From Terriglobia bacterium (GTDB lineage Bacteria; Acidobacteriota; Terriglobia; JAJPHL01; JAPKYU01), in contig CBDCVK010000010.1 in the NCBI GenBank assembly GCA_965223005.1, positions 1,152,001 through 1,216,000 on the forward strand: DNA of 64,000 nucleotides. Reading direction: 5' to 3'. Below the pieces are notes generated by a model that had not been told where the DNA came from, made no database searches, and saw only the letters and a list, made by a program, of their open reading frames with translations. The number at the start of each line of letters is the position of its first letter. Position 1 is the stretch's first letter. Made by a program: the position numbers and the translations under genes. Positions 13,284 to 23,408 of the stretch are shown here, in pieces.

Positions 13284-14345
13284 ATGCTGGTCAAGACGCG
13301 CAGCGCCGCGGTCTTCGGCATTGACGCCTACCTGGTGGACGTGGAAGTGGACCTGTCCAGCCGGGGCATGCACGATTTCCTGGTGGTAGGCCTGCCGGAC
13401 GCAGCGGTCAAGGAAAGCCACCATCGCGTCCGCGGCGCGCTGAAAAACTGCGGTTACTACTTCGGCCAGAGCGTCACCGTCAACCTTGCCCCAGCCGACA
13501 AGAGGAAGGAAGGCTCCGGCTTTGACCTTCCCATGGCCATGGGAATTCTCGGGGCTTTAGAGGTGGTTTCCTCTGAGCGGCTGGCCGAGTTCCTGTTCCT
13601 CGGCGAGCTGTCGCTGGACGGCTCGCTGCGCCCTATCCGCGGCACGCTGCCGGTGGCCGTGCTGGCCCGGGCATCCGGCATCCGGCACCTCGTGGTTCCA
13701 TCTGCCAACGCGCGAGAGGCGGCGGTCGTCGAGGGGGTCTGCGTCTTTGCGGTGAACTCGCTGGGGGAGGCGCTGGCCCTGGTGAACGATGCGCCCGGTT
13801 TCACCGCAACCCAGGTGGACCGCCAGCAGGCCTTGGAGCAAAGCAGCGTTTATAACGTGGACTTCAGCGAAGTGCGCGGGCAGAAGGCTACCAAACGCGC
13901 TCTGGAAGTGGCCGCCGCCGGCGCCCACAACATCCTGATGATTGGGCCGCCGGGTTCGGGCAAGACGATGCTGGCCCGGCGCCTGCCCACCGTCCTGCCC
14001 GGCCTGAGCTTTGACGAGGCCATCCAGACAACCAAGATTCACAGCGTGGCTGGAGTGCTGGACCCGGCGCAGGGCCTGCTCTGCACTCGACCCTTCCGCT
14101 CACCGCACCATACCATCTCGGACGCCGGCCTGGTAGGCGGCGGGACCATTCCTCATCCTGGCGAGGTGAGCCTGGCGCACAACGGGGTGCTGTTTCTGGA
14201 CGAGTTGCCGGAATTCCGGCGCAATGTGCTGGAGGTGATGCGCCAGCCTTTGGAGGATGGCGCGGTGACGATCGCCCGGGCCACCATGACCGTGGCCTTC
14301 CCCTCCTCCTTCATGCTCGCCGCCGCCATGAACCCTTGCCCGTAG
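13284..14345 (+). pseudogene. comM: comM/YifB Mg-chelatase-like AAA+ ATPase, 5' fragment (interrupted by island)
   Basis: [19 protein letters not shown] (Walker A), [17 protein letters not shown] (Walker B); ends AAMNPCP* at an island-supplied TAG. Confidence 0.95.
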
Positions 14346-15831
14346 GGCTTATTTCATTGCGACACCTATCTGTAAGAATCGAAAGGCCTGCCACGCGGTA
14401 GTTGTGTACGTGGATTCCGGGGACAATCGCTTGCAGAAGCCTCCGTTTGTGGTCCCTCGATAAAAACTCCCACTCGTGGAAGGGTGCAAACACCTGCGCC
14501 AGTTCCGCCGCAGAAAAGGACATTTCTGGGGACTCCCGCATCAGCATTTGCCGGTACAGCGCCTGGTCCCGCTCGACGGCGGCCAGGCGGCGATCCCGCT
14601 CTTCCTGCGTGATCACTCCATCGAAGTAGGTCCCGAGAACCCGCTCCCGCTTTCCGGCGAGTGCCCGCAGTTCAGACTGCAACCGCACCACCTGATTATT
14701 CTCGCCATCACGACCATGTCGGTACTGTTCCATCAAGTCTTCGAGGAAATCACCGTCAGTCAACCGTTGCGCAAAGAGCGAATCCAGTGACGCTTCCAGA
14801 CGCTCGCGACGCATATAGCGGCTTTCGCACTTCCCGCTTAGCCGACGGTTCTTGCAGATGTAGTAATCACGCCCTCGATGGTGTGTGTAAATGATTTCAT
14901 TGCAGGCGGAGCAGTTAAGAAACCCGTTGTAGACAAAGCGATGCTCATAATCCAGACGCGACCGCCAATGCCGCTCCCGCTTCAGGTCAAGCAATCTCTG
15001 CAGATGAGAAAATTCGTCTTCGCTCAGAATACCGTCCATTACCTTGACGCGAATAACTTCTTCCGGCGTCCGGGCCACCTTGGGCCGATCCGCCTGCCGA
15101 CCGTCTTGTTTGGTACGTTTGGCTGCGGGCGAAGGGTCCCGCCGCTGAGAGTACACTCGCCAACCCGCGTAGATCGGGTTGCGCAGGATCACCCGTAGGT
15201 TAAAGGGGTCAATGCCAAGCTTCTCCCCCACAGCTCGGTAACTGGTTTCTCCCCCAAGAAAAAGGCGCACCGCTTCTCGCACCTTCTCGGCTTCCGCTTT
15301 GTAGTACCAGCCACGATGCTCGTCATACGCGACCCCGAACGGGAGAGTTATCCAAGATTGCGGGTGCTTGCCAGCGCGCCGGTTCTCTTCCTTTGCCGCC
15401 CACACGCGCTCCAAAATCTCGGTGCGCTCTAAGCCGGCGATGGCTGCCCGGATCGGTCCCATAAGCCGACCGGCCTTTGAAGACATATCAATCAGTCCGT
15501 CCGGGAGGTATAGCACCGTGCGCGTGTCAACGAAGGCTTGCAGCAGAGCGTAATCTGTAAAATTTTCTGGCCGCATCAGGCGCGAGAATTCCTTCGCCAC
15601 AACACCATGAATCTGCGGTGACTCCATCAGCCGAAGTAGTTCTTTCATCTCCGGCGCCATCAGAACCGCTGCTCCCGAAACGTCGGCCATCTCAATAGTG
15701 CGAACAATCTCAAGGCCGTACTGCTGGGCTGTGCGCCTGTTCGCCGCACGTTGGGCCGGGACGCCGGCGCGACCCTCGGCCGCTTGCCCCTCAGTTGACA
15801 CGCGGATGAGTTCGATCACCTTTTTGTTCAT
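14311..15831 (-). CDS. Large serine recombinase (integrase), 506 aa in the integrated state; 3' end crosses the att junction
   Basis: ELIRVST catalytic Ser, [18 protein letters not shown] recombinase domain, CSAC...YYIC...C zinc ribbon, coiled coil; start MNKK at 15831. Confidence 0.93.
14315..14366. other. Left attachment junction (comM half-site + island arm); crossover dinucleotide CC 14340-14341
   Basis: Joining 14341 to 22934 restores MNPCPCGFFND in frame; island arm 14342-14366 is a 17/25 inverted repeat of 22907-22931. Confidence 0.85.
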
Positions 15832-15972
15832 CGTCCAACCCGCAGAGTTTTCTTGCCAGCCGCAATACTGTTGATTGGTCCCCGCTTTCGAGCGCTGCCC
15901 GAAGGCTGGCGAGAGTTTCGCGCCTTTTGCGCGAGATTTCAAGCGCCGCCTCCAGGATTCCTTTGGAATTGG

Positions 15973-17366
15973 TGGGCTTGATCCGGTTTCGTGGACACGT
16001 TCCGAAAGGCGGATACGATGTCCAGAATGGGATCAACGAAGGCAGGGAGACGGGCGCGACGACAGTTCAGTGAGGAGTTCCGGATCGGAGCCGTTCGGCT
16101 GGTCTTGGATGCGGGCAAGACGGTCGGCGCCGTCGCGCGCGAGTTGGATCTGACGCCATCGGCCCTGGCGCAGTGGGTGAAGCAGGCACGTGCCGATCGG
16201 ACGAAGGGCAAGACGGGGCTGACGACCGAGGAGCGCGCCGAGCTGGCGCGCCTACGCAAAGACAATCGCGAGCTGCGGATGGAGCGCGACGTCCTAAAAA
16301 AAGCCACGGCCTTCTTCGCGAAGGACCACCTGTGAAGTTCGCGTGGATCCAGGCGGAGAAGGCCACCTACCCGCTCACGAAGCTCTGCCGCTGGCTCGAC
16401 GTCACGCGGAGTGGCTTTTACGCCTGGCGCGCGCGTCCAGAATCAACGCATGCACGCGAGGATCGCCGGCTGGCCGTGCTGGTGCGGGCGTCGTTTGAGG
16501 CGAGCAAGCAGCGCTACGGCAGCCCGCGCGTTCACGAGGATCTCCTTGAGCAGGAGGAGCACGTCAGCCGCAAACGGGTCGTGCGCCTGATGCAGAAAGA
16601 CGGGCTGAAGGCGCGGCGGCGCAAGCGGTACAAGCTCACCACGATGAGTGATCACGATCAACCGGTGGCGGCCAATCTCCTGGACCGACACTTTGAGGCG
16701 GCCGCGCCGAATCAACGGTGGGTCGGCGACACGACGGAGTTCGTCATCGGCGGCAGCGGGAAGCTCTACCTTGCGGCGATCTTGGATCTGTTCTCCCGGT
16801 TCATCGTGGGATGGGCCGTGAGCGCCGTCAACGACCGCCATCTGACCATCAAGGCGCTCCAGATGGCGCTGAAGCGCCGCTGCCCCGACGCCGGTCTGCT
16901 GCACCATTCCGACCAGGGCGGCACCTATGCGAGCGAGGACTACCAAGACGTGCTCGACACACACGGTATCATCTGTAGCATGAGCCGCCGGGGCAATTGC
17001 TACGACAATGCCGTGATGGAAAGCTTCTTCTCGACGGTCAAGAGCGAACTCCGCGAGCACTTCGACAGCAACGGCGAGGCCAAGATGGAGTTATTCGACT
17101 ACATCGAAGTGTTCTATAACCAGCGGCGGCGCCACTCGACGCTCGGCCAGATCAGTCCGGCCGCCTTCGAGCGACGCGTGGCGGCGTAGGGCATGGACGC
17201 TGCCGTCCCTGTGGACGCGGAAAACGCGTCCACGAGTGACTTGGAAAACCGCACAGAACGCGGTTTCCCACAGCGTCCACACCCATTATCGCGTTCATGA
17301 AAGGAAGAAAAAAGAGAGAGACTCAACCAACGTAACTAAACCGTCCACTGAATCGGATCAGGCTCA
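15973..17366 (+). mobile_element. IS3-family insertion sequence, 1,394 bp, 3-bp target duplication TGG
   Basis: TG...CA ends; IRL TGGGCTTGATCCGGTTTCGTGGAC vs IRR(rc) TGAGCCTGATCCGATTCAGTGGAC (19/24); TGG at 15970-15972 and 17367-17369. Confidence 0.95.
16018..17189 (+). CDS. IS3 transposase OrfA (16018-16335) / OrfB joined by -1 programmed frameshift
   Basis: OrfA HTH and ELRMERDVLKKA; A7G slippery site at 16296-16303; OrfB WVGDTT, HHSDQG, CYDNAVMESFF (DDE). Confidence 0.93.
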
Positions 17367-17407
17367 TGGGCGGCGTTCCGGGCTGTGGGTCGCGGCTCAT
17401 TCGTGGT

Positions 17408-17893
17408 TCAGAACGATGTACTCCGCAACTTTCGCAGCATGGCTTTGCTACCGGCATCTACGCCACACCGGCGGGCATGTTGCTCCTGCCGTTTCTTCCG
17501 CTGGACCCGTGCCGCCTCGATGCCCGGCAGGAGGCAATCGCAGCGCCGCACGGTGTTTTCATTAACCTGAATCCAGCCGCTCGTGTCGGCACAGTTCTCA
17601 CAAAATCTACCGGTGTCCTCCGGGTCGTAACTTTTCTGGCGCTGTGTCGTTTGTGCGGCCTTGCTGATGGCGGCCACACTGGGGAAGTAGTCGTAGTTCC
17701 TCAAGCACCACGCACAAGCCTCGGACAATAGTTCTGGCGACAAATGGGCCAGGCCCTCAGCGTAGACGGCAGCGTGCGGTTCAGTAATCTCCCGGTTCCA
17801 GGAGGCGCTGAACTGGAACAGCCAGTGTTTGAGTGCCGCCAGGAATTGCTCGTTCGAGCGCGGTAGCAGTTCGGATGATTTTTTGCTGTTCAT
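17408..17893 (-). CDS. Phage-type replication accessory protein (helicase loader/inhibitor-like) with zinc knuckle
   Basis: Helical N-terminus ending YFPSVAAI, then CENC...GWI...RRCDC; directly downstream of the initiator gene. Confidence 0.5.
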   Translation of the reverse strand: MNSKKSSELLPRSNEQFLAALKHWLFQFSASWNREITEPHAAVYAEGLAHLSPELLSEACAWCLRNYDYFPSVAAISKAAQTTQRQKSYDPEDTGRFCENCADTSGWIQVNENTVRRCDCLLPGIEAARVQRKKRQEQHARRCGVDAGSKAMLRKLRSTSF

Positions 17894-18692
17894 AAGACAG
17901 GGTTCCCTTTAGTGGTTTTCCGAAGCGGTCTAGTGGTCCGCCAGCGTATTTCGCTAAATTTCTGAGCCAGAAGTGTGGCGGCTCGCTGTGATTTGCTTCG
18001 CTTGCGAATCGGTGTTGGAGGCACACCAAAATCTGCTCCGTGGTCCAGGAAGGGTTTTCGCGGAGGAACAGGGCGAGGTTTCGTCCTTCTGTCGGTCCCC
18101 AGGGGGCCGTCGGCACCCCAGGGTTGCGTTCGCGCCAACCTTGCTGGATTGCATTTCTGACTTCAGGGTGCCGGGTGTCAACTTCGCCCGTGGCCGGTGC
18201 TTTTGGACGTGCCACAAGGCCCTTCTCCTGGGTTCCCTTAACATGTGTACCCTTAAGCGGAAGGTGGTTCCGCTGGTTTCTGCTGTCATTTTCCGCTGGC
18301 TCTGCGCTTGTTTTCCGCTGGTGGCGGAACGTGGTTCCGCTGGCACCGGAATCTAATTCCGCTGGCGGGAGCCATTCGGACTTGTCAAGCAAATGGTAGA
18401 CGTTATTCAAAAACCCGCCGCTTTCGGCACGTCGGCGCTCCACCGCTATCAGGCGGAGGCGCTCCAAAAGGTGGAGGTATTTACGAACGCTACGGGCACT
18501 GATGCCATGTTGTTCGGCGATTCTTTGTTCGGAAGGAAAGCAGGACTCATTCCGGTCAACGTGCCGACATAGGCTCAAGTAGATAGCTGTGCCAATGGGT
18601 CCCAGCACCTTCGCGTAGCCATTCAGGTACAAGTCGTCTACCACGAAGTATCCCTTTCGCCTGCGGTCCCTGACCTGGAATCCTGCGTTCAC
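17781..18692 (-). CDS. Winged-HTH replication initiator-like protein (phage O/replisome-organiser type)
   Basis: AIYLSLCRH...CFPSEQRIAEQHGISARSVRKYLHLLERLRLI..NNVYHLL (HTH_36-like); low-complexity linker holding direct repeats. Confidence 0.7.
   Translation of the reverse strand: MNAGFQVRDRRRKGYFVVDDLYLNGYAKVLGPIGTAIYLSLCRHVDRNESCFPSEQRIAEQHGISARSVRKYLHLLERLRLIAVERRRAESGGFLNNVYHLLDKSEWLPPAELDSGASGTTFRHQRKTSAEPAENDSRNQRNHLPLKGTHVKGTQEKGLVARPKAPATGEVDTRHPEVRNAIQQGWRERNPGVPTAPWGPTEGRNLALFLRENPSWTTEQILVCLQHRFASEANHSEPPHFWLRNLAKYAGGPLDRFGKPLKGTLSYEQQKIIRTATALERAIPGGTQTLAVPVQRLLEPGDY
18268..18365. repeat. Five iteron-like direct repeats TTCCGCTGG (putative origin inside the initiator gene)
   Basis: Exact copies start at 18268, 18291, 18313, 18335, 18357 (spacing 23, 22, 22, 22). 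Confidence 0.8.
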
Positions 18693-18868
18693 CTCGTCGC
18701 CTCCAGGGTGACGCGCTTGCTAGCCCTCGCTGGGCGACGCACGTCATTTCCCATCCCGCCCGGTGGTTCTGCTGGATGGACTCTTTCCGCGAGCCAGGTA
18801 CACACAACTTCCGAATCCAGCCGAACCAGACGCCCCACCTTTACGAAAGTGATTTCTCGCAAAGAAAC
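18689..18868 (-). pseudogene. Excisionase-like (HTH_17/MerR-type) remnant lacking its N-terminal half
   Basis: VSLREITFVKVGRLVRLDSEVVCTWL; its TGA overlaps the initiator GTG (GTGA); not in the ORF track (<60 aa). Confidence 0.55.
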
Positions 18869-19094
18869 CGGGGGGCCTTTTCGTGGAAAAGCTCTATTTG
18901 GCAGTGTTCTGTGGGCGCACTGCCTTATCCTGGCATTTCTCGGCTTGCGGGGTTCCTATGTGGTTGGCGATCAGGTCGGCCCTGAACTCCATGGTTCTTC
19001 GTGAGCCGCCGGGAGCGACTAAACCGTCTAGCCTATTTGCAGCAGTGTGCCGTGACCCCCTACAGTCACCATCGCGCACGGGCGCCGAAACGGA

Positions 19095-19417
19095 CTATTT
19101 TCTTTCCATCTCCGCGTGCACTTCCAACGTCTGTCCTGCCGCAATCGAAATCTTGCGCTCCCAATCCTTGAAACCCTGCTTTCGCAGCTTGGCGTTGTAC
19201 TTTCCCGGCGCCAACGTTTGGGACTGTGGACTGACTCCAGCGTAAGCTCCGTCGATTTCGACTTCAGCCCACGCAGGATCGGAAGTTATCTTCACGGCAC
19301 CTTTCTGCTCTTCGCTCGGTGGAACGTCTAGTTCGGCCTTTACACCTTTCTTAAACAGCCACTTCCGGTCCTTTTCATCAGCATAAATAGGCTTGCCTGT
19401 ATGGAATGTGAGGGCAT
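19095..19417 (-). pseudogene. PEGA-domain protein, 3' fragment
   Basis: VKITSDPAWAEVEIDGAYAGVSP...LAPGKY...KQGFKDW PEGA pattern; joins 22031-22493 in frame. Confidence 0.85.
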
Positions 19418-19528
19418 CTAGGCCCGGATTTCCTTTATGAACTATCGGCGGCAACCTTCTGAATGACTCCAACGTCAGTATTGATGCGGGTTCCAGCATC
19501 AACATTGCCTTCCGGAGGTGTACACCGA

Positions 19529-20857
19529 ATGGGTGAGAGCCAAAAACAGGCGTTTCAACTGTCATTCAACCGGTTTCTGCGGGTCACATTTCAGGGATCG
19601 CGAATCACTTCCGACGGCGGTCTGATTCTGGTGCGCGAGTTGGACGAACGTTTGGGGTTCGGCGAACTTATCGAACAGCACTTGATCGACTCTCGGGGGA
19701 AGAACACTCGGTTGCCCCTCGCTGACTTGCTGCGGCAGTCCATCTACAGCCGCTTGGCAGGATACGAAGACGTCAACGACGCCGAGCGGCTTTCCCAAGA
19801 TCCGACGTTCCGGCTGATCGGTTCGGAGAAGATCTGGGAACGTGGCGCAGCCCTGACTTCCCGGTTACAGTCGTTCGAGACAGAACTGCTGACGCAAGAC
19901 GAGAACCTTGCTGGTTTGGCAGCGATCAACCGGGATTTGATCGCCAGGGCGGAAGCTATGGATGCGCCGCGCCGGGTGGTGCTGGACATGGACAGCACCG
20001 AGATCCCGGTCTACGGCGAACAGGAGCAGAGCGCCTACAACGGGCATTTCGAGTCGAGTTGCTATCACCCGTTGTTGCTGTTCAGTCGCGAGGGTGACTG
20101 TCTGGCGGCCAAGCTGCGACCCGGCAACGTGCACAGCGCCGAGGATTGGGAAGAACTTCTCCTGCCAGAGATCGAACGGCAGCAGAAGCTGGGCAAGGAA
20201 GTGGTGTTTCGCGCCGACGCCGCCTTCGCCAAGCCGGAGATCTACGACGCACTGGAGGAGCGGGACGTGAAGTATGCGATTCGCATCCCGGCCAACGACA
20301 GTCTGGAGAGGGACATCGCGGAGTTGTTGACGCGGCCAGTGGGGCGACCGAGCCACAAGCCGGTGGTCTGGTACAAGAGCTTTCTCTACCAGGCAGCCAG
20401 TTGGAAAAAGGCGCGGCGGGTGGTGGCGAAGGTGGAGTTCCACTTTGGCGAACTGTTCCCTCGCGTGGGGTTCATCGTCACCAATCTGGAGACCGACAGC
20501 CGGGCGGTGGTCCGGTTCTACAACAAGCGGGGCACCGCAGAGCAATGGATCAAGGAAGGCAAGCAGGCGGTAAAGATGACCCGGCTGAGTTGCCATCGGT
20601 TTCGGTCGAACGAGGTGCGCCTATGGCTGAGCCTGATCGCCTACAACTTGGGAAACCTGTGGCGGCGGCTGGTGCTACCGAAGAGGATCAACAACTGGTC
20701 GCTGACGAGTTTGCAGCAGCGGCTGGTGAAAACGGGAGGACGGCTGGTGAAACATGCGCGATATTACTGGCTTTTGCTGGCCGAAGGGCACTTGAGCCGG
20801 AGGCTGTTCAGCAGCATGCTGCGAACGATCTCGGCACTGCCGCTGCCAGACGGCTAG
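19529..20857 (+). CDS. IS1380-family DDE transposase
   Basis: TSDGGL, GYEDVND, LDMDST, FRADAAF, YNKRGTAEQWIKEGK. Confidence 0.93.
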   Translation: MGESQKQAFQLSFNRFLRVTFQGSRITSDGGLILVRELDERLGFGELIEQHLIDSRGKNTRLPLADLLRQSIYSRLAGYEDVNDAERLSQDPTFRLIGSEKIWERGAALTSRLQSFETELLTQDENLAGLAAINRDLIARAEAMDAPRRVVLDMDSTEIPVYGEQEQSAYNGHFESSCYHPLLLFSREGDCLAAKLRPGNVHSAEDWEELLLPEIERQQKLGKEVVFRADAAFAKPEIYDALEERDVKYAIRIPANDSLERDIAELLTRPVGRPSHKPVVWYKSFLYQAASWKKARRVVAKVEFHFGELFPRVGFIVTNLETDSRAVVRFYNKRGTAEQWIKEGKQAVKMTRLSCHRFRSNEVRLWLSLIAYNLGNLWRRLVLPKRINNWSLTSLQQRLVKTGGRLVKHARYYWLLLAEGHLSRRLFSSMLRTISALPLPDG

Positions 20858-21016
20858 CGACCCAGGAGAGAGGGTAATTTTAGGTGCTCAGAAGTGGTCG
20901 GGCCGGACAAGTGTCAGCGGCGAGGCAGGCTGGGCAGGCGAAACCCGCACAGCGACTCCGAAGAACAGCCAAAATGTGCCGCACTACGACCTCAAAGAGG
21001 CCCGGGCGATTTGCGA

Positions 21017-21045
21017 TTGACACGACAGGGTAAGAGGCATAGGTT
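21017..21045 (+). promoter_or_regulatory. Outward-facing sigma70-type promoter inside the IS1380 right end
   Basis: TTGACA (21017-21022), 17-bp spacer, TAGGTT (21040-21045), pointing at the captured gene. Confidence 0.5.
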
Positions 21046-21142
21046 TTCGGGTGAAGGGGAAGCTCAAAATGGAAATTCCGGGTAAGAGATTAGACCCTGT
21101 TTCACTTGACGGACTAAGTCCGCAAGCCAGAAGGGGTGAACC

Positions 21143-21952
21143 ATGAGTTTGTCGAAGATCGTTGCTCTGGGCACCGGGATTTACCATCACTACGGCCTGG
21201 AAGCTGCACTGAAAGGGATTCATCGGGCCGGGTGCGGCTATGTGGAGATGGCAGCCAACCCACCACATGCAGAACACGTTTCCCTCGACATGGACGACGC
21301 CGCAGTCGAGGCCCTGCTGGCCAAGCTTCAGCAGTACCGTCTCAAGGTCGTGGCTCTAAACGGCAACATCGGCATGATGAGGAAAGGCGACGTCGAGCGA
21401 TCCAAGAAACTCATCAGCCTTGCTCCAAAGCTTGGCGCCGGGGTTGTGGTGAATACACTCGGCGGAGCCGGCCTGGAAGAGGACTTACCCCCGTTTCTGG
21501 CCAACGTCGGGGAGGTGGCGGACCATGCCCGAAAAAACGGTGTCACGATTGGCCTGGAAGTGCACGGCAAGCACACTGCCAACGGCAAACTCGCTTTGGC
21601 CACGGTTCGCGCGGTCAATGACCCAAACGTTAAGATCAACTACGATACCGCCAACTGCATCTATTTCGGCGATACCTTGCCCTACGAAGACCTGCCGGTT
21701 GCTGTCCCCGAAATGGCGCACATCCATCTGAAGGATAAGATCGGCGGCAAGGGAGTATGGAACTTTCCGCCCATAGGAATGGGTGAAATTGACTTCGAAA
21801 GGGTGCTCAACATCTTGGACGACGGAGGCTATCGAGGTGCGCTGAGCGTGGAGATCGAGTTCGACGACCGGGGCTGGCCTCCTGTTGCCGAGGTGGACGA
21901 GGCTGCAAGCTCCGCCTATCGCACCCTCATGCGATTGCTGGAGACGCACTAG
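21143..21952 (+). CDS. Sugar phosphate isomerase/epimerase (xylose-isomerase-like TIM barrel)
   Basis: Metal-ligand motifs GLEVHG, NYDTAN, HIHLKD, SVEIE. Confidence 0.85.
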   Translation: MSLSKIVALGTGIYHHYGLEAALKGIHRAGCGYVEMAANPPHAEHVSLDMDDAAVEALLAKLQQYRLKVVALNGNIGMMRKGDVERSKKLISLAPKLGAGVVVNTLGGAGLEEDLPPFLANVGEVADHARKNGVTIGLEVHGKHTANGKLALATVRAVNDPNVKINYDTANCIYFGDTLPYEDLPVAVPEMAHIHLKDKIGGKGVWNFPPIGMGEIDFERVLNILDDGGYRGALSVEIEFDDRGWPPVAEVDEAASSAYRTLMRLLETH

Positions 21953-22030
21953 CAGGAGCTGAGGGTTTCTGCCCGCGGCCGTGTCAGGCGCTGAGGTTCT
22001 TGAACGACTCCTTCATCTTGCGAAACTCAG

Positions 22031-22493
22031 CTAGGATACCCTTGAATTGCTTCTTATGCGCTTTCATCTGCAAGCCACGCTCCCGATTTTGGTCGTCGGT
22101 CCATTCAACGAGAATGAGGTGCTGACGCGATTTGTGGAGGATTCCGACTAACGCAATTGGTGCTAGCAAGACACCAACCGCAACCCATTTGGCGACCCTC
22201 CTGGTCGTGGCCTGTCCATACGTCAGCCTTGTTACTCTGTCGACCGGAATTGTCACCGGCGGAATCACATCCTTCTTGAAGCCAAAGGTGACTTCCTTTT
22301 CGGTGACGTAGAGTCTGTTGTCCCAAGATTTGCGGACTTTCTTTATATCCTCATCCGCAAAACCGGCACCTCCAAGGTACTTGATGCCCTTCGGGAAATT
22401 TTCTCCATAGGCCGAAGGGAGTATCAAAGATACACAAAAAAGTGTCACGATCAGCTTCTTCGTACCTTCACGACGCGCACTGAGTTGAATCAT
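22031..22493 (-). pseudogene. PEGA-domain exported/membrane protein, 5' fragment (currently reads on into passenger DNA to TGA at 21984)
   Basis: AGGAGG RBS, signal-like N-terminus, internal hydrophobic stretch; reconstructed protein 261 aa. Confidence 0.8.
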
Positions 22494-22906
22494 CACTTGC
22501 CTCCTTTCGCGCGACCCGTCGGCGAGCCAAAGTAGTACCGTGTGCGGACGAACGGTCCAAACCCTCTTCCTTTGCCACCTGTGCCCCTCAAGGAGAACTG
22601 AGAACGCGGATGGTAAGTAGAGAAATCAATCCCCCTTGCCGATAACCTACGCTCCCCTCAGGAGCTAGTCAAGAACGGGCCAGTGTGGCCTTTATTAGAG
22701 GTCGGGGAGGGTGATCCTAGGCGACCTCACTCCGGGACTCGTGCTTCCTCTTTACTTAATGGTTTAATTCAAGCGGTAGGAATACGTTAGCAGTGGTGGT
22801 TACAAGGCCAGCCGTAGTCGAATGGTTGGCGATGCAACCACTTCAGGTCGCTCTCAAACGCCAACCTGCCTACGCCGCAAAGTCCAGCCGCAGGTATAAG
22901 TTGCGG

Positions 22907-22958
22907 GGCGCCGTAATGAGATAACCCGCAGCCCTGTGGTTTCTTCAACGATTCTACC
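22907..22958. other. Right attachment junction (island arm + comM half-site); CC 22932-22933
   Basis: GGCGCCGTAATGAGATAACCCGCAG-CC-CTGTGGTTTCTTC; the arm is an inverted repeat of the left island arm. Confidence 0.85.
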
Positions 22959-23408
22959 CGCGAGTGCCACTGCACTCCGGGCGTGATCCAGCGTTACGTT
23001 TCAAAGATTTCCGGCCCGCTGCTGGACCGCATTGACATCCACGTTGATGTCCCGGCAGTGAAGTACCGCGAGCTGCGCTCCGAGCAGAGCGCGGAAGATT
23101 CGGCGGCGATTCGCGCCCGGGTGGAACGCGCCCGCGCCACGCAACTGGAGCGCTTCCGCAACGACGGCATCTACGCCAATGCCCAGATGAGCACCCGGCT
23201 CATGCGCCGCCATTGCCCGATTGACGAGGCTTCCGAGAAGCTGCTGGAGACCGCCATTAGCCGCATGGGGCTTTCCGCCCGCGCCCACGACCGCATCCTG
23301 AAGGTGGCCCGCACCATTGCCGACCTGGAAGGCTCTTCCGCGATCCAGTCCCGCCACATCGGTGAAGCCGTTCAGTACCGCTCGCTCGACCGCACCTACT
23401 GGGCCTAG
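22932..23408 (+). pseudogene. comM: comM 3' fragment
   Basis: [37 protein letters not shown]...[19 protein letters not shown]; reconstructed ComM is 510 aa. Confidence 0.95.

Follow-up and report, generated by a model that had tools for sequence, protein, structure and literature searches.

Can an integrative element change the C-terminus of its own integrase when it enters or leaves a chromosome, and is the end that it then encodes more than chance sequence? This question is raised by an island in a 64,000-nucleotide stretch of a Terriglobia bacterium (assembly GCA_965223005.1, contig CBDCVK010000010.1, positions 1,152,001 to 1,216,000), hereafter the window, where comM, a gene for an AAA ATPase of the YifB family, is interrupted at a CC dinucleotide by an 8,592-bp island (14342-22931) with a G+C content below that of its surroundings. 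The N-terminal part of comM lies at 13284-14341 on the plus strand (TIGR00368, 432 bits, profile positions 3-349 of 499) and the C-terminal part at 22934-23408 on the same strand (TIGR00368 profile positions 349-499), and the joined gene is in frame. A large serine recombinase (LSR) gene at 14311-15831 on the minus strand crosses the left junction of the island and ends within comM. The comparisons reported here indicate that recombination rewrites the C-terminus of this integrase and that the tail of its excised form is non-random; docking or tag roles for that tail are predictions.

The recombinase open reading frame (ORF) extends from an ATG at 15831 to a TGA at 14311-14313 and encodes 506 amino acids (aa); an alternative TTG start at 15942 would give 543 aa, and the family alignment begins at the ATG instead. 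The catalytic domain (PF00239, E 1.2e-15, residues 6-155) is followed by the Recombinase domain PF07508 and the zinc ribbon PF13408, a composition that places the protein among the large serine recombinases, and it matches the integrases of phrog_95. Ser12, within ...IRVST..., is invariant in alignments of 30 and of 70 relatives. In the AlphaFold2 (AF2) model of this inserted form, which has a mean predicted local distance difference test score (pLDDT) of 81.2, long helices at residues ~342-469 stand between the zinc ribbon and a closing hairpin, as in a coiled coil insertion. The attachment site of the free element, attP, would measure ~48 bp with a CC centre and dyad-symmetric arms, the short format of serine integrase sites. 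By its sequence the island is an integrative element driven by an LSR. Family membership predicts that the enzyme acts on attP and the empty chromosomal site attB, and that the reverse reaction needs a recombination directionality factor (RDF).

In the inserted form, the last nine codons and the stop (14311-14340, minus strand) are antisense comM, the tail GKGSWRRRA being the antisense of comM codons 14314-14340. When the ends of the island are joined at the CC (22933 to 14342), the same gene continues into 20 codons at 22873-22932 and a TAG at 22870-22872 (together 22870-22932, minus strand), which gives a 517-aa protein whose 20-residue tail ends in Ala-Ala. This tail is readable only with the island ends joined, and homologous tails were found in 43 rebuilt and 13 natural elements. 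Recombinase residues 1-497 are unchanged by insertion; 20 residues are swapped for nine. Both half-sites of attP are coding as well: the P' half-site on the island side of attL (14342-14364) shows dyad symmetry and encodes recombinase residues ...CRNEISPT, and the P half-site on the island side of attR (22909-22931, dyad-symmetric at positions 2-23) encodes residues 1-8 of the tail. A first-pass annotation of this locus had described both the ORF crossing the left junction with its nine borrowed codons and the two protein lengths of 517 and 506 aa; the coordinates of the former are exact and the latter were reproduced exactly.

The position of the crossover had also been placed by that annotation at an in-frame CC, and this placement was confirmed. 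The two copies of the dinucleotide lie at 14340-14341 (attL), as located from the comM frame, the empty sites and the junctions of the family, and at 22932-22933 (attR), as located by comparing the sequences of the junctions; the codons of comM targeted there read Cys-Pro-Cys-Gly. Both junctions read GCCC, so that an alignment shifted by one base is possible. The CC register alone restores an in-frame comM of 510 aa, the neighbouring registers stopping at 369 and 386. Furthermore, two genomes of the same genus (G051 and G053) carry comM unbroken at the predicted site, reading ...ATGAACCC[T/C]TGCCC followed directly by CTG[T/C]GGTTTC; in G051 the N-terminal part of comM is 99% identical to the window's and the flanks are identical to the rebuilt attB. 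Joints were also read from the contigs of four public runs; contigs drop rare variants, so excision is not judged by them. In one run (X17) a single contig links 14339 to 22932 with two ambiguous letters, a weak joint with only 28 letters on its shorter side; these two letters are all the repetition at the empty-site joint, and there are no long direct repeats. A related strain that never carried the island may be the source of this joint. The CC register is thus fixed by the comM frame and the empty sites of the two genomes, together with the weak joint. The empty site in a genome of the same genus indicates that the site can be unoccupied and says nothing on excision itself.

A protein search with the recombinase returned 1,050 homologues, the best 120 of which are considered here. 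Bar one entry at 100%, which is the window's own, these are 54-73% identical to the query, and the few named entries among them belong to Terriglobia and other Acidobacteriota. The antisense-comM signature ends 98 of these best 120 (P0004-P0123), and about eight more end in the +1 frame of comM, as judged by eye. Among 80 genome loci, the 3' end of the recombinase adjoins ATGAAYCCNTGY followed by CC in 52 (orientation A), with a TGY/CC junction as in the window. In seven others (orientation B: L006, L010, L021, L024, L031, L036 and L054) the recombinase arm meets the opposite half of comM at the same codons and the gene reads into the +1 frame of comM. Thirteen loci hold more distant recombinases at other positions in comM, and in eight comM is not nearby; the classes of L065 and L059 were reassigned by eye. 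Since so many listed homologues and loci share it, the crossing of the junction by the recombinase gene is more than chance. On the recombinase strand the central dinucleotide is GG in orientation A and CC in orientation B, with the same attP arms. The central dinucleotide sets the polarity of insertion, as expected for a serine integrase, and the two orientations are a natural illustration of it.

The thirteen distant recombinases (L035, L043, L047, L048, L050, L051, L059, L062, L063, L065, L069, L076 and L078; 37-53% identical) adjoin comM at residues ~310-348 and leave the CPCG codons intact; because they adjoin other positions, comM has at least two serine-recombinase target sites. One further locus (L061, 9338-11489) is a 2,150-bp island in comM that holds the recombinase and a divergent 166-aa ORF only. 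The match of this ORF to PIN is borderline (23.3 bits where the cut-off is 23.6), and the description of the locus as a recombinase-only element was dropped on account of it. As an integrative element it is very small, and a typical RDF would not fit in it.

The tail gained on insertion consists of nine host-derived residues in 35 of the 38 rebuilt orientation-A elements and of 16-17 unrelated residues in orientation B. Because orientation-B elements acquire a quite different tail, the inserted-form tail is unlikely to have a specific function and would be a by-product of comM's other strand or frame. The basic-tailed integrated isoform of the first-pass annotation therefore survives in part: the enzyme does end differently once integrated, and the significance attached to that ending itself is lost, as it is arbitrary antisense or +1-frame comM. 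The meaningful difference between the two forms is the presence or absence of a motif in the excised-form tail.

The evidence for this motif comes from excised forms rebuilt across the family. The other half of comM was located in 45 further genomes, to which three loci with both ends and the window were added; 38 of 49 elements attempted in orientation A (the window included) and five of six attempted in orientation B could be rebuilt, giving 43. In the others the C-terminal part of comM was not found (L026), the comM match continues upstream of the site so that there is no junction (L012, L028, L037, L044 and L055), or the contig ends at or inside the junction (L057, L033, L046, L070 and L071); in orientation B, L024 failed and L054 was left out. 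All 43 tails share the same frame relative to the crossover and are 17-58 residues long (median 22). Their consensus opens with AAG[IY]F[IV]AE and continues, across a variable spacer of two to four residues, to [ILV]-[YF]-[LI]-P-[LIM]; the end varies. This motif (hydrophobic, Tyr or Phe, Leu, Pro, hydrophobic), at ~11-16 residues from the crossover, occurs in a loose form in 39 of 43 tails and in a strict form with Pro in 36; 2,000 shuffles of the tails gave 0.60 matches on average and never more than 4. The motif starts at tail residue 10-13 in 39 of 39 and is followed by 2 to 42 residues, usually standing 2-15 residues from the C-terminus. In the window the copy reads LYLRL (22885-22899, minus strand), with Arg where 36 of the 43 relatives have Pro. 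Two tails (L008 and L011, attR loci L088 and L090) have neither the spacer nor the Pro motif; their ...GIFVALNW... is similar to ...IFLPLNW... in a sister group, and may reflect an in-frame deletion that joined the half-site-encoded residues to the end of the motif.

Conservation at this place could lie in the DNA, given that a recombination site overlaps the gene. Across 38 elements, the dyad symmetry between the P and P' arms is confined to positions 2-23 from the centre, with background identity beyond, and the motif falls at arm positions ~33-47, outside the half-site. The first eight residues of the tail are explained by the half-site, as they are its reverse-strand reading, the mirror image of which encodes ...F-S-N-E-x-T-x-T before the crossover. 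Within the motif, entropy at the three codon positions is 0.98, 0.20 and 1.58, compared with 1.81, 1.91 and 1.90 in the three codons that follow; likewise pN/pS is 0.285 in the motif and 0.957 after it. Pro is encoded by each of its four codons and Leu by both of its codon families. The remaining five frames contain stops in 15-29 of the 39 tails; an overlapping antisense gene as the cause of the conservation was rejected, the antisense frames having stops in 15, 28 and 29 of the 39. Since the motif lies outside the half-site, varies with a period of three and is followed by unconstrained codons, selection appears to act on the peptide and not on the DNA. The wobble pattern and the constancy of position carry most of the case, and the facts free of selection bias are the frequency of the motif and the fixity of its position. 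From these sequence patterns, selection on the protein maintains the motif, family-wide in Acidobacteriota elements and phages. The expectation of the first-pass annotation that excised-form tails, with attP rebuilt across relatives, would be non-random is thereby upheld in motif frequency, near-fixed distance and wobble pattern; its more specific version, a conserved tail ending in Ala-Ala or in a hydrophobic motif, holds for the motif and fails for the Ala-Ala end, which only six of the 43 carry.

Excised-type tails are also found without any rebuilding. A 5.9-kb contig of a metagenome-assembled genome (L045) carries an unrecombined, dyad-symmetric attP 61 nt upstream of the stop codon of the recombinase gene, the tail of which ends ...ERIFIPLSL. 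Some 300 bp downstream lies a gene for a 442-aa tyrosine integrase (PF00589, E 7.8e-32), the region concerned being 296-3500 of L045, and the element thus has two integrases of different classes. Fifteen homologous loci lie on IMG/VR viral contigs; comM is absent within 3 kb of each, and 10 carry an excised-type tail; these viral tails end R-h-[FWY]-[ILV]-P-[LV]-x-L, mostly R-h-[FWY]-[ILV]-P-L-N-L, where h is a hydrophobic residue. Two database proteins, P0115 and P0117, have natural excised-type tails as well. Because viral contigs carry such tails, part of the family is phage-borne and its free-form gene is seen without reconstruction. The motif persists in relatives 46-53% identical to the window's recombinase, viral contigs included.

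The natural L045 protein was modelled with AF2 from a 70-row alignment (mean pLDDT 86.4). It shows a standard LSR body, matching the full-length integrases of SPbeta, Bxb1 and phiC31 (9dxh_A, E 6.7e-18) and 4kis. The linker at residues 497-516, which spans the attP-encoded residues, has a pLDDT below 50, and residues 519-522 (I-F-I-P of the motif) form a four-residue strand in a last block with a mean pLDDT of 81. In the inserted form of the window, residues 498-506 are below 50 and form no strand. When the L045 tail (residues 495-525) was offered to residues 1-494 in a complex prediction, the score was 0.44 (runs 0.44, 0.13 and 0.46), a weak value; controls reached 0.00 as best of three. At least 40% of contacts are shared between runs, and the partner has a pLDDT of 34 or more. 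In calibration, 58 of 80 solved complexes attained the mark, as did two of 110 mismatched pairs; seven of the 80 and both passing mismatches did so with a score of 0.60 or less. According to these models the att core sits in a disordered linker of the integrase, and recombination swaps what follows it.

Taken as a whole, the explanation that we consider probable is that attP lies in the 3' end of the recombinase gene, that the tail is swapped by recombination, and that the excised-form tail bears a selected motif, possibly a docking peptide. A conservative exchange at the CC dinucleotide with the site in comM replaces the last codons of the gene. The free circular form encodes the eight residues of the P half-site, a spacer of two to four residues and then the hydrophobic-Tyr/Phe-Leu-Pro-hydrophobic motif; the inserted form loses this tail and gains nine antisense comM residues, or 16-17 from the +1 frame if reversed. 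The motif would act as a docking peptide of the integration-competent enzyme, folding back as a beta-strand on the recombinase itself or on the partner subunit in the synapse, and the enzymes of the free and of the inserted element would differ in activity or directionality. Such a state-coupled switch would act beside, or in place of, a separate RDF. That the motif is a short C-terminal docking peptide altering the activity or directionality of the free-element enzyme is a tentative suggestion, which we would put somewhat below an even chance. Stronger still would be the claim that direction is set by the recombination state of the gene, the motif-bearing enzyme integrating only and the inserted form being excision-competent or silenced; this we think unlikely. 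If it were so, no separate RDF would be needed, which would explain the 2,150-bp island L061.

Several observations weigh against this explanation. The isoform proteins and the circle are both deduced from nucleotide sequence, and the circle joint (22933 to 14342) is absent among the joints listed from the contigs of the four runs (best 15 of 33). Loss of the tail alone does not explain excision, because canonical LSRs without such a tail are already locked against excision. The window's own copy of the motif has Arg for Pro, and four of the 43 tails miss the motif, two as variants (L013 and L064) and two with the shorter IFVALNW (L008 and L011). Visibly truncated recombinase genes, with open frames of 40-377 aa, are seen in four of the 38 inserted elements. 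The windows used for entropy and pN/pS were picked by their amino-acid pattern and are thereby biased towards conservation; the tails are related and not independent, so that the shuffle control overstates significance. As to structure, the strand comes from one model of one protein, with an alignment that contains only three excised-type tails, and the complex prediction is a weak test, made on two pieces of one chain.

The alternative that survives best, and our second choice, is that the hydrophobic motif serves to bring in an AAA+ unfoldase or protease, whether ClpX, ClpA or Lon, leading to degradation of the integrase or to disassembly of the product synapse. ClpX is known to disassemble the product synapse of MuA transposase. 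The motif stands near the C-terminus behind a disordered linker, is hydrophobic and conserved at the protein level, and Ala-Ala ends are enriched among the tails. On the other hand, the AF2 strand is paired within the protein and is not a free end, and the number of residues after the motif varies from 2 to 42. We regard this reading as rather improbable, about on a par with gene-state control of direction. Within it, Ala-Ala may represent one lineage-specific variant of the tag.

Less probable again is the proposal of the first-pass annotation that an ssrA-type Ala-Ala degron makes ClpXP keep the circle-encoded integrase unstable, insertion removing the tag. The window's tail does end in Ala-Ala, as do five other rebuilt tails (L017, L023, L040, L041 and L064), six in all against ~0.87 of 43 predicted by tail composition; the same end is seen in two of the 10 natural viral tails, and two of the six rebuilt ones end in LAA. 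The usual place of the motif close to the C-terminus is, moreover, where degrons act, and precedents exist in the repressors of mycobacteriophage BPs (PMC4557955) and corynephage CyranoPS (10.64898/2026.10.29.762952). However, 37 of the 43 rebuilt and eight of the 10 viral tails end otherwise, the length after the motif is not constant, and the conserved element is the Tyr-Leu-Pro motif and not the terminus. Furthermore, L040, L041 and L064 are close relatives, which leaves fewer independent origins of Ala-Ala. The enrichment above chance thus looks real in these sequences yet concerns a minority, the other endings being very diverse; an ssrA-like end is a property of the window's copy and not of the family. 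As a common mechanism the degron is contradicted by these counts, and we judge it improbable.

A neutral overlap would need no function at all: attP would overlap the end of the gene by chance, the tail would be dispensable, and its conservation would be inherited or imposed by DNA, whether as a longer attP, as a site for an accessory factor or as a promoter. It is favoured by the first eight tail residues, which the P half-site fully explains, and by the inserted form, which works with arbitrary host-derived tails in two orientations. The C-termini of LSRs are also often disordered, residues 590-605 of phiC31 integrase being without density (10.1101/2025.05.02.651858). Against it stand the position of the motif beyond the dyad-symmetric 23 bp, the period-3 synonymous variation with all four Pro codons, the unconstrained codons just after the motif, the lack of any other open frame and the persistence of the motif at 46-53% identity, viral contigs included. 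Hence we think a neutral overlap very improbable.

The binding consensus of the sliding clamp is QL[SD]LF or QLxLx[LF], with Gln as its most conserved residue. The least credible reading, also raised in the first-pass annotation for YLRLDF, is a degenerate clamp (beta) peptide that would tie the integrase of the excised element to replication forks: the peptide is Leu-rich, hydrophobic and near the C-terminus, and six of 43 tails read Q-L-[IV]-Y-[LVF]-P, but none of the 43 fits either form of the consensus, Gln standing at -2 from the motif in six, at -1 in two and at neither position in 35.

Returning to the tail swap with a selected motif, the nearest known case is the serine integrase of Goe14, an SPbeta-like Bacillus phage (bioRxiv 10.1101/2021.11.22.469490). 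According to that report, attP there lies within the stretch of the gene that codes for the C-terminus, so that insertion changes the end of the enzyme, no separate directionality factor (sprB) was found, and its authors speculate that integration falls to the long form and excision to the short one. The principle of a self-rewriting serine integrase is therefore already in print, as speculation. In contrast to the family described here, Goe14 loses 131 residues, has spoVK as its target and is a single phage, described without comparative or functional evidence; in the comM family 17-58 residues (median 22) are swapped for nine, the target is comM, and a short motif is under selection. The likeness is one of gene arrangement.

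Other systems share part of the arrangement. Archaeal viruses and plasmids encode SSV-type ("suicidal") tyrosine integrases, in which the recombination site lies inside the integrase ORF and insertion changes the integrase gene itself (PMC7253208; PMC8371274); these are archaeal tyrosine recombinases whose gene is split into two inactive parts, whereas here a serine recombinase keeps its body intact. In mycobacteriophage BPs (PMC4557955) integration removes a C-terminal tag from the repressor, and in corynephage CyranoPS (10.64898/2026.10.29.762952) it removes 15 residues. BPs, Brujita and CyranoPS resemble the comM elements in having attP in the 3' end of a coding gene and in losing on insertion a C-terminal peptide that changes behaviour; they differ in that the gene encodes a repressor, integration is by a tyrosine integrase and the peptide removed serves as a degradation tag. 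In the comM family the gene affected is that of the integrase, and conservation does not fall on an Ala-Ala end. State-dependent integrase expression is also a feature of two phages with tyrosine integrases, which sets them apart from the present enzymes: insertion reportedly alters the 3' end of the int gene in myxophage Mx8 (intP/intX), and in lambda sib retroregulation the 3' end of the int transcript is altered and only RNA stability changes.

A directional role of the tail is plausible by analogy with two observations. Directionality is reversed when an RDF is fused to a serine integrase at its C-terminus (PMC5737554), and the extreme C-terminus of phiC31 integrase is part of the zinc-ribbon domain surface that binds the RDF (10.1101/2025.05.02.651858). 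The fusion resembles the tail in that the direction in which a serine integrase recombines can be set by a polypeptide attached at its C-terminus; the fusion differs in being artificial and a whole RDF protein, where the tail offers a natural five-residue motif. Regarding the target, comM is a known hotspot of mobile elements (PMC11472951), and an "ATP-dependent protease" gene is targeted, according to one survey, by 12.4% of predicted site-specific LSRs (10.1101/2021.11.05.467528). The latter gene is probably comM-like, which would make comM a leading LSR target. No description of the comM-targeting family or of its tail motif was found in the open literature, subscription journals and supplements lying outside the search. 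Within that literature, a large comM-targeting family, a crossover within a linker and evidence of selection on a peptide specific to the excised form appear to be new.

The remainder of the island in the window is largely mobile DNA. An IS3-family insertion of 1,397 bp (15970-17366, plus strand; transposase 16173-17189 with rve, HTH_21 and rve_3) lies 138 bp upstream of the recombinase start. The contigs of all four runs join 15969 to 17367 with a three-letter overlap and lack it; the insertion is recent or polymorphic. A second mobile segment of 2,613 bp (19418-22030, plus strand) holds, by Pfam, a DDE_Tnp_1_4 transposase (19463-20857) and a xylose-isomerase-like TIM-barrel gene (21143-21952). 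It is absent from the contigs of three of the four runs, which join 19417 to 22031 with a five-letter overlap. This segment looks like a transposon with a passenger gene and appears to have cut a PEGA-domain ORF (19095-19565). As the contigs lack the IS3 element and the transposon, the ancestral island would measure ~4.6 kb. In two of the runs (X18 and X21) opposite-strand joints link 14253 with 15881 and 14254 with 15947, with 67 letters on the shorter side. A repeat search of the window gave no inverted repeat matching these joints, which may be assembly-graph artefacts of a gene shared by several strains. Contigs also break at 14217-14252, the probable cause being that comM is common to several strains.

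Among the other genes, that at 17781-18692 (minus strand) encodes an HTH_36 protein (PF13730) resembling phage replication initiators (phrog_270, E 1.9e-14). A 170-aa ORF (21984-22496, minus strand) and a 161-aa ORF have no family match in Pfam, PHROG or NCBIfam. The circle would place the 170-aa ORF downstream of the recombinase on the same strand, ~370 bp past the stop of the tail, and, judging by this arrangement, a transcript shared with the recombinase could arise in the free form only. The five non-IS ORFs of the window's island have no match in any other locus of the recombinase set. Thirty relatives of the host, from the same genus to the same class, contain no close homologue of the recombinase (best 30% identity), and the island is hence foreign to the host lineage. 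Since its motif has Arg for Pro, the IS3 element sits just upstream of the recombinase and a second transposon lies within the island, the window's copy may be decaying and is perhaps not fully functional.

For serine integrases, the control of directionality is the central question still open, and it is what chiefly limits their use in genome engineering; a short selected peptide found on the free-element enzyme only would offer a simple pair of isoforms for testing intrinsic control. Annotated homologues in this family are mostly inserted-form chimeras, as the 98 of the 120 listed show, and not the enzymes that perform integration; screens that synthesise annotated ORFs would therefore assay proteins without the conserved tail. 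The family also illustrates how an att site can be tolerated inside a gene, by lying in a disordered linker, with one half-site encoding the residues before the crossover and its mirror image those after. If direction were indeed set by the state of the gene, evolution would have given serine integrases a switch with two states in one protein. To the biology of the Acidobacteriota, the family adds elements and phages that insert in comM in both orientations and are predicted to be able to restore the gene exactly.

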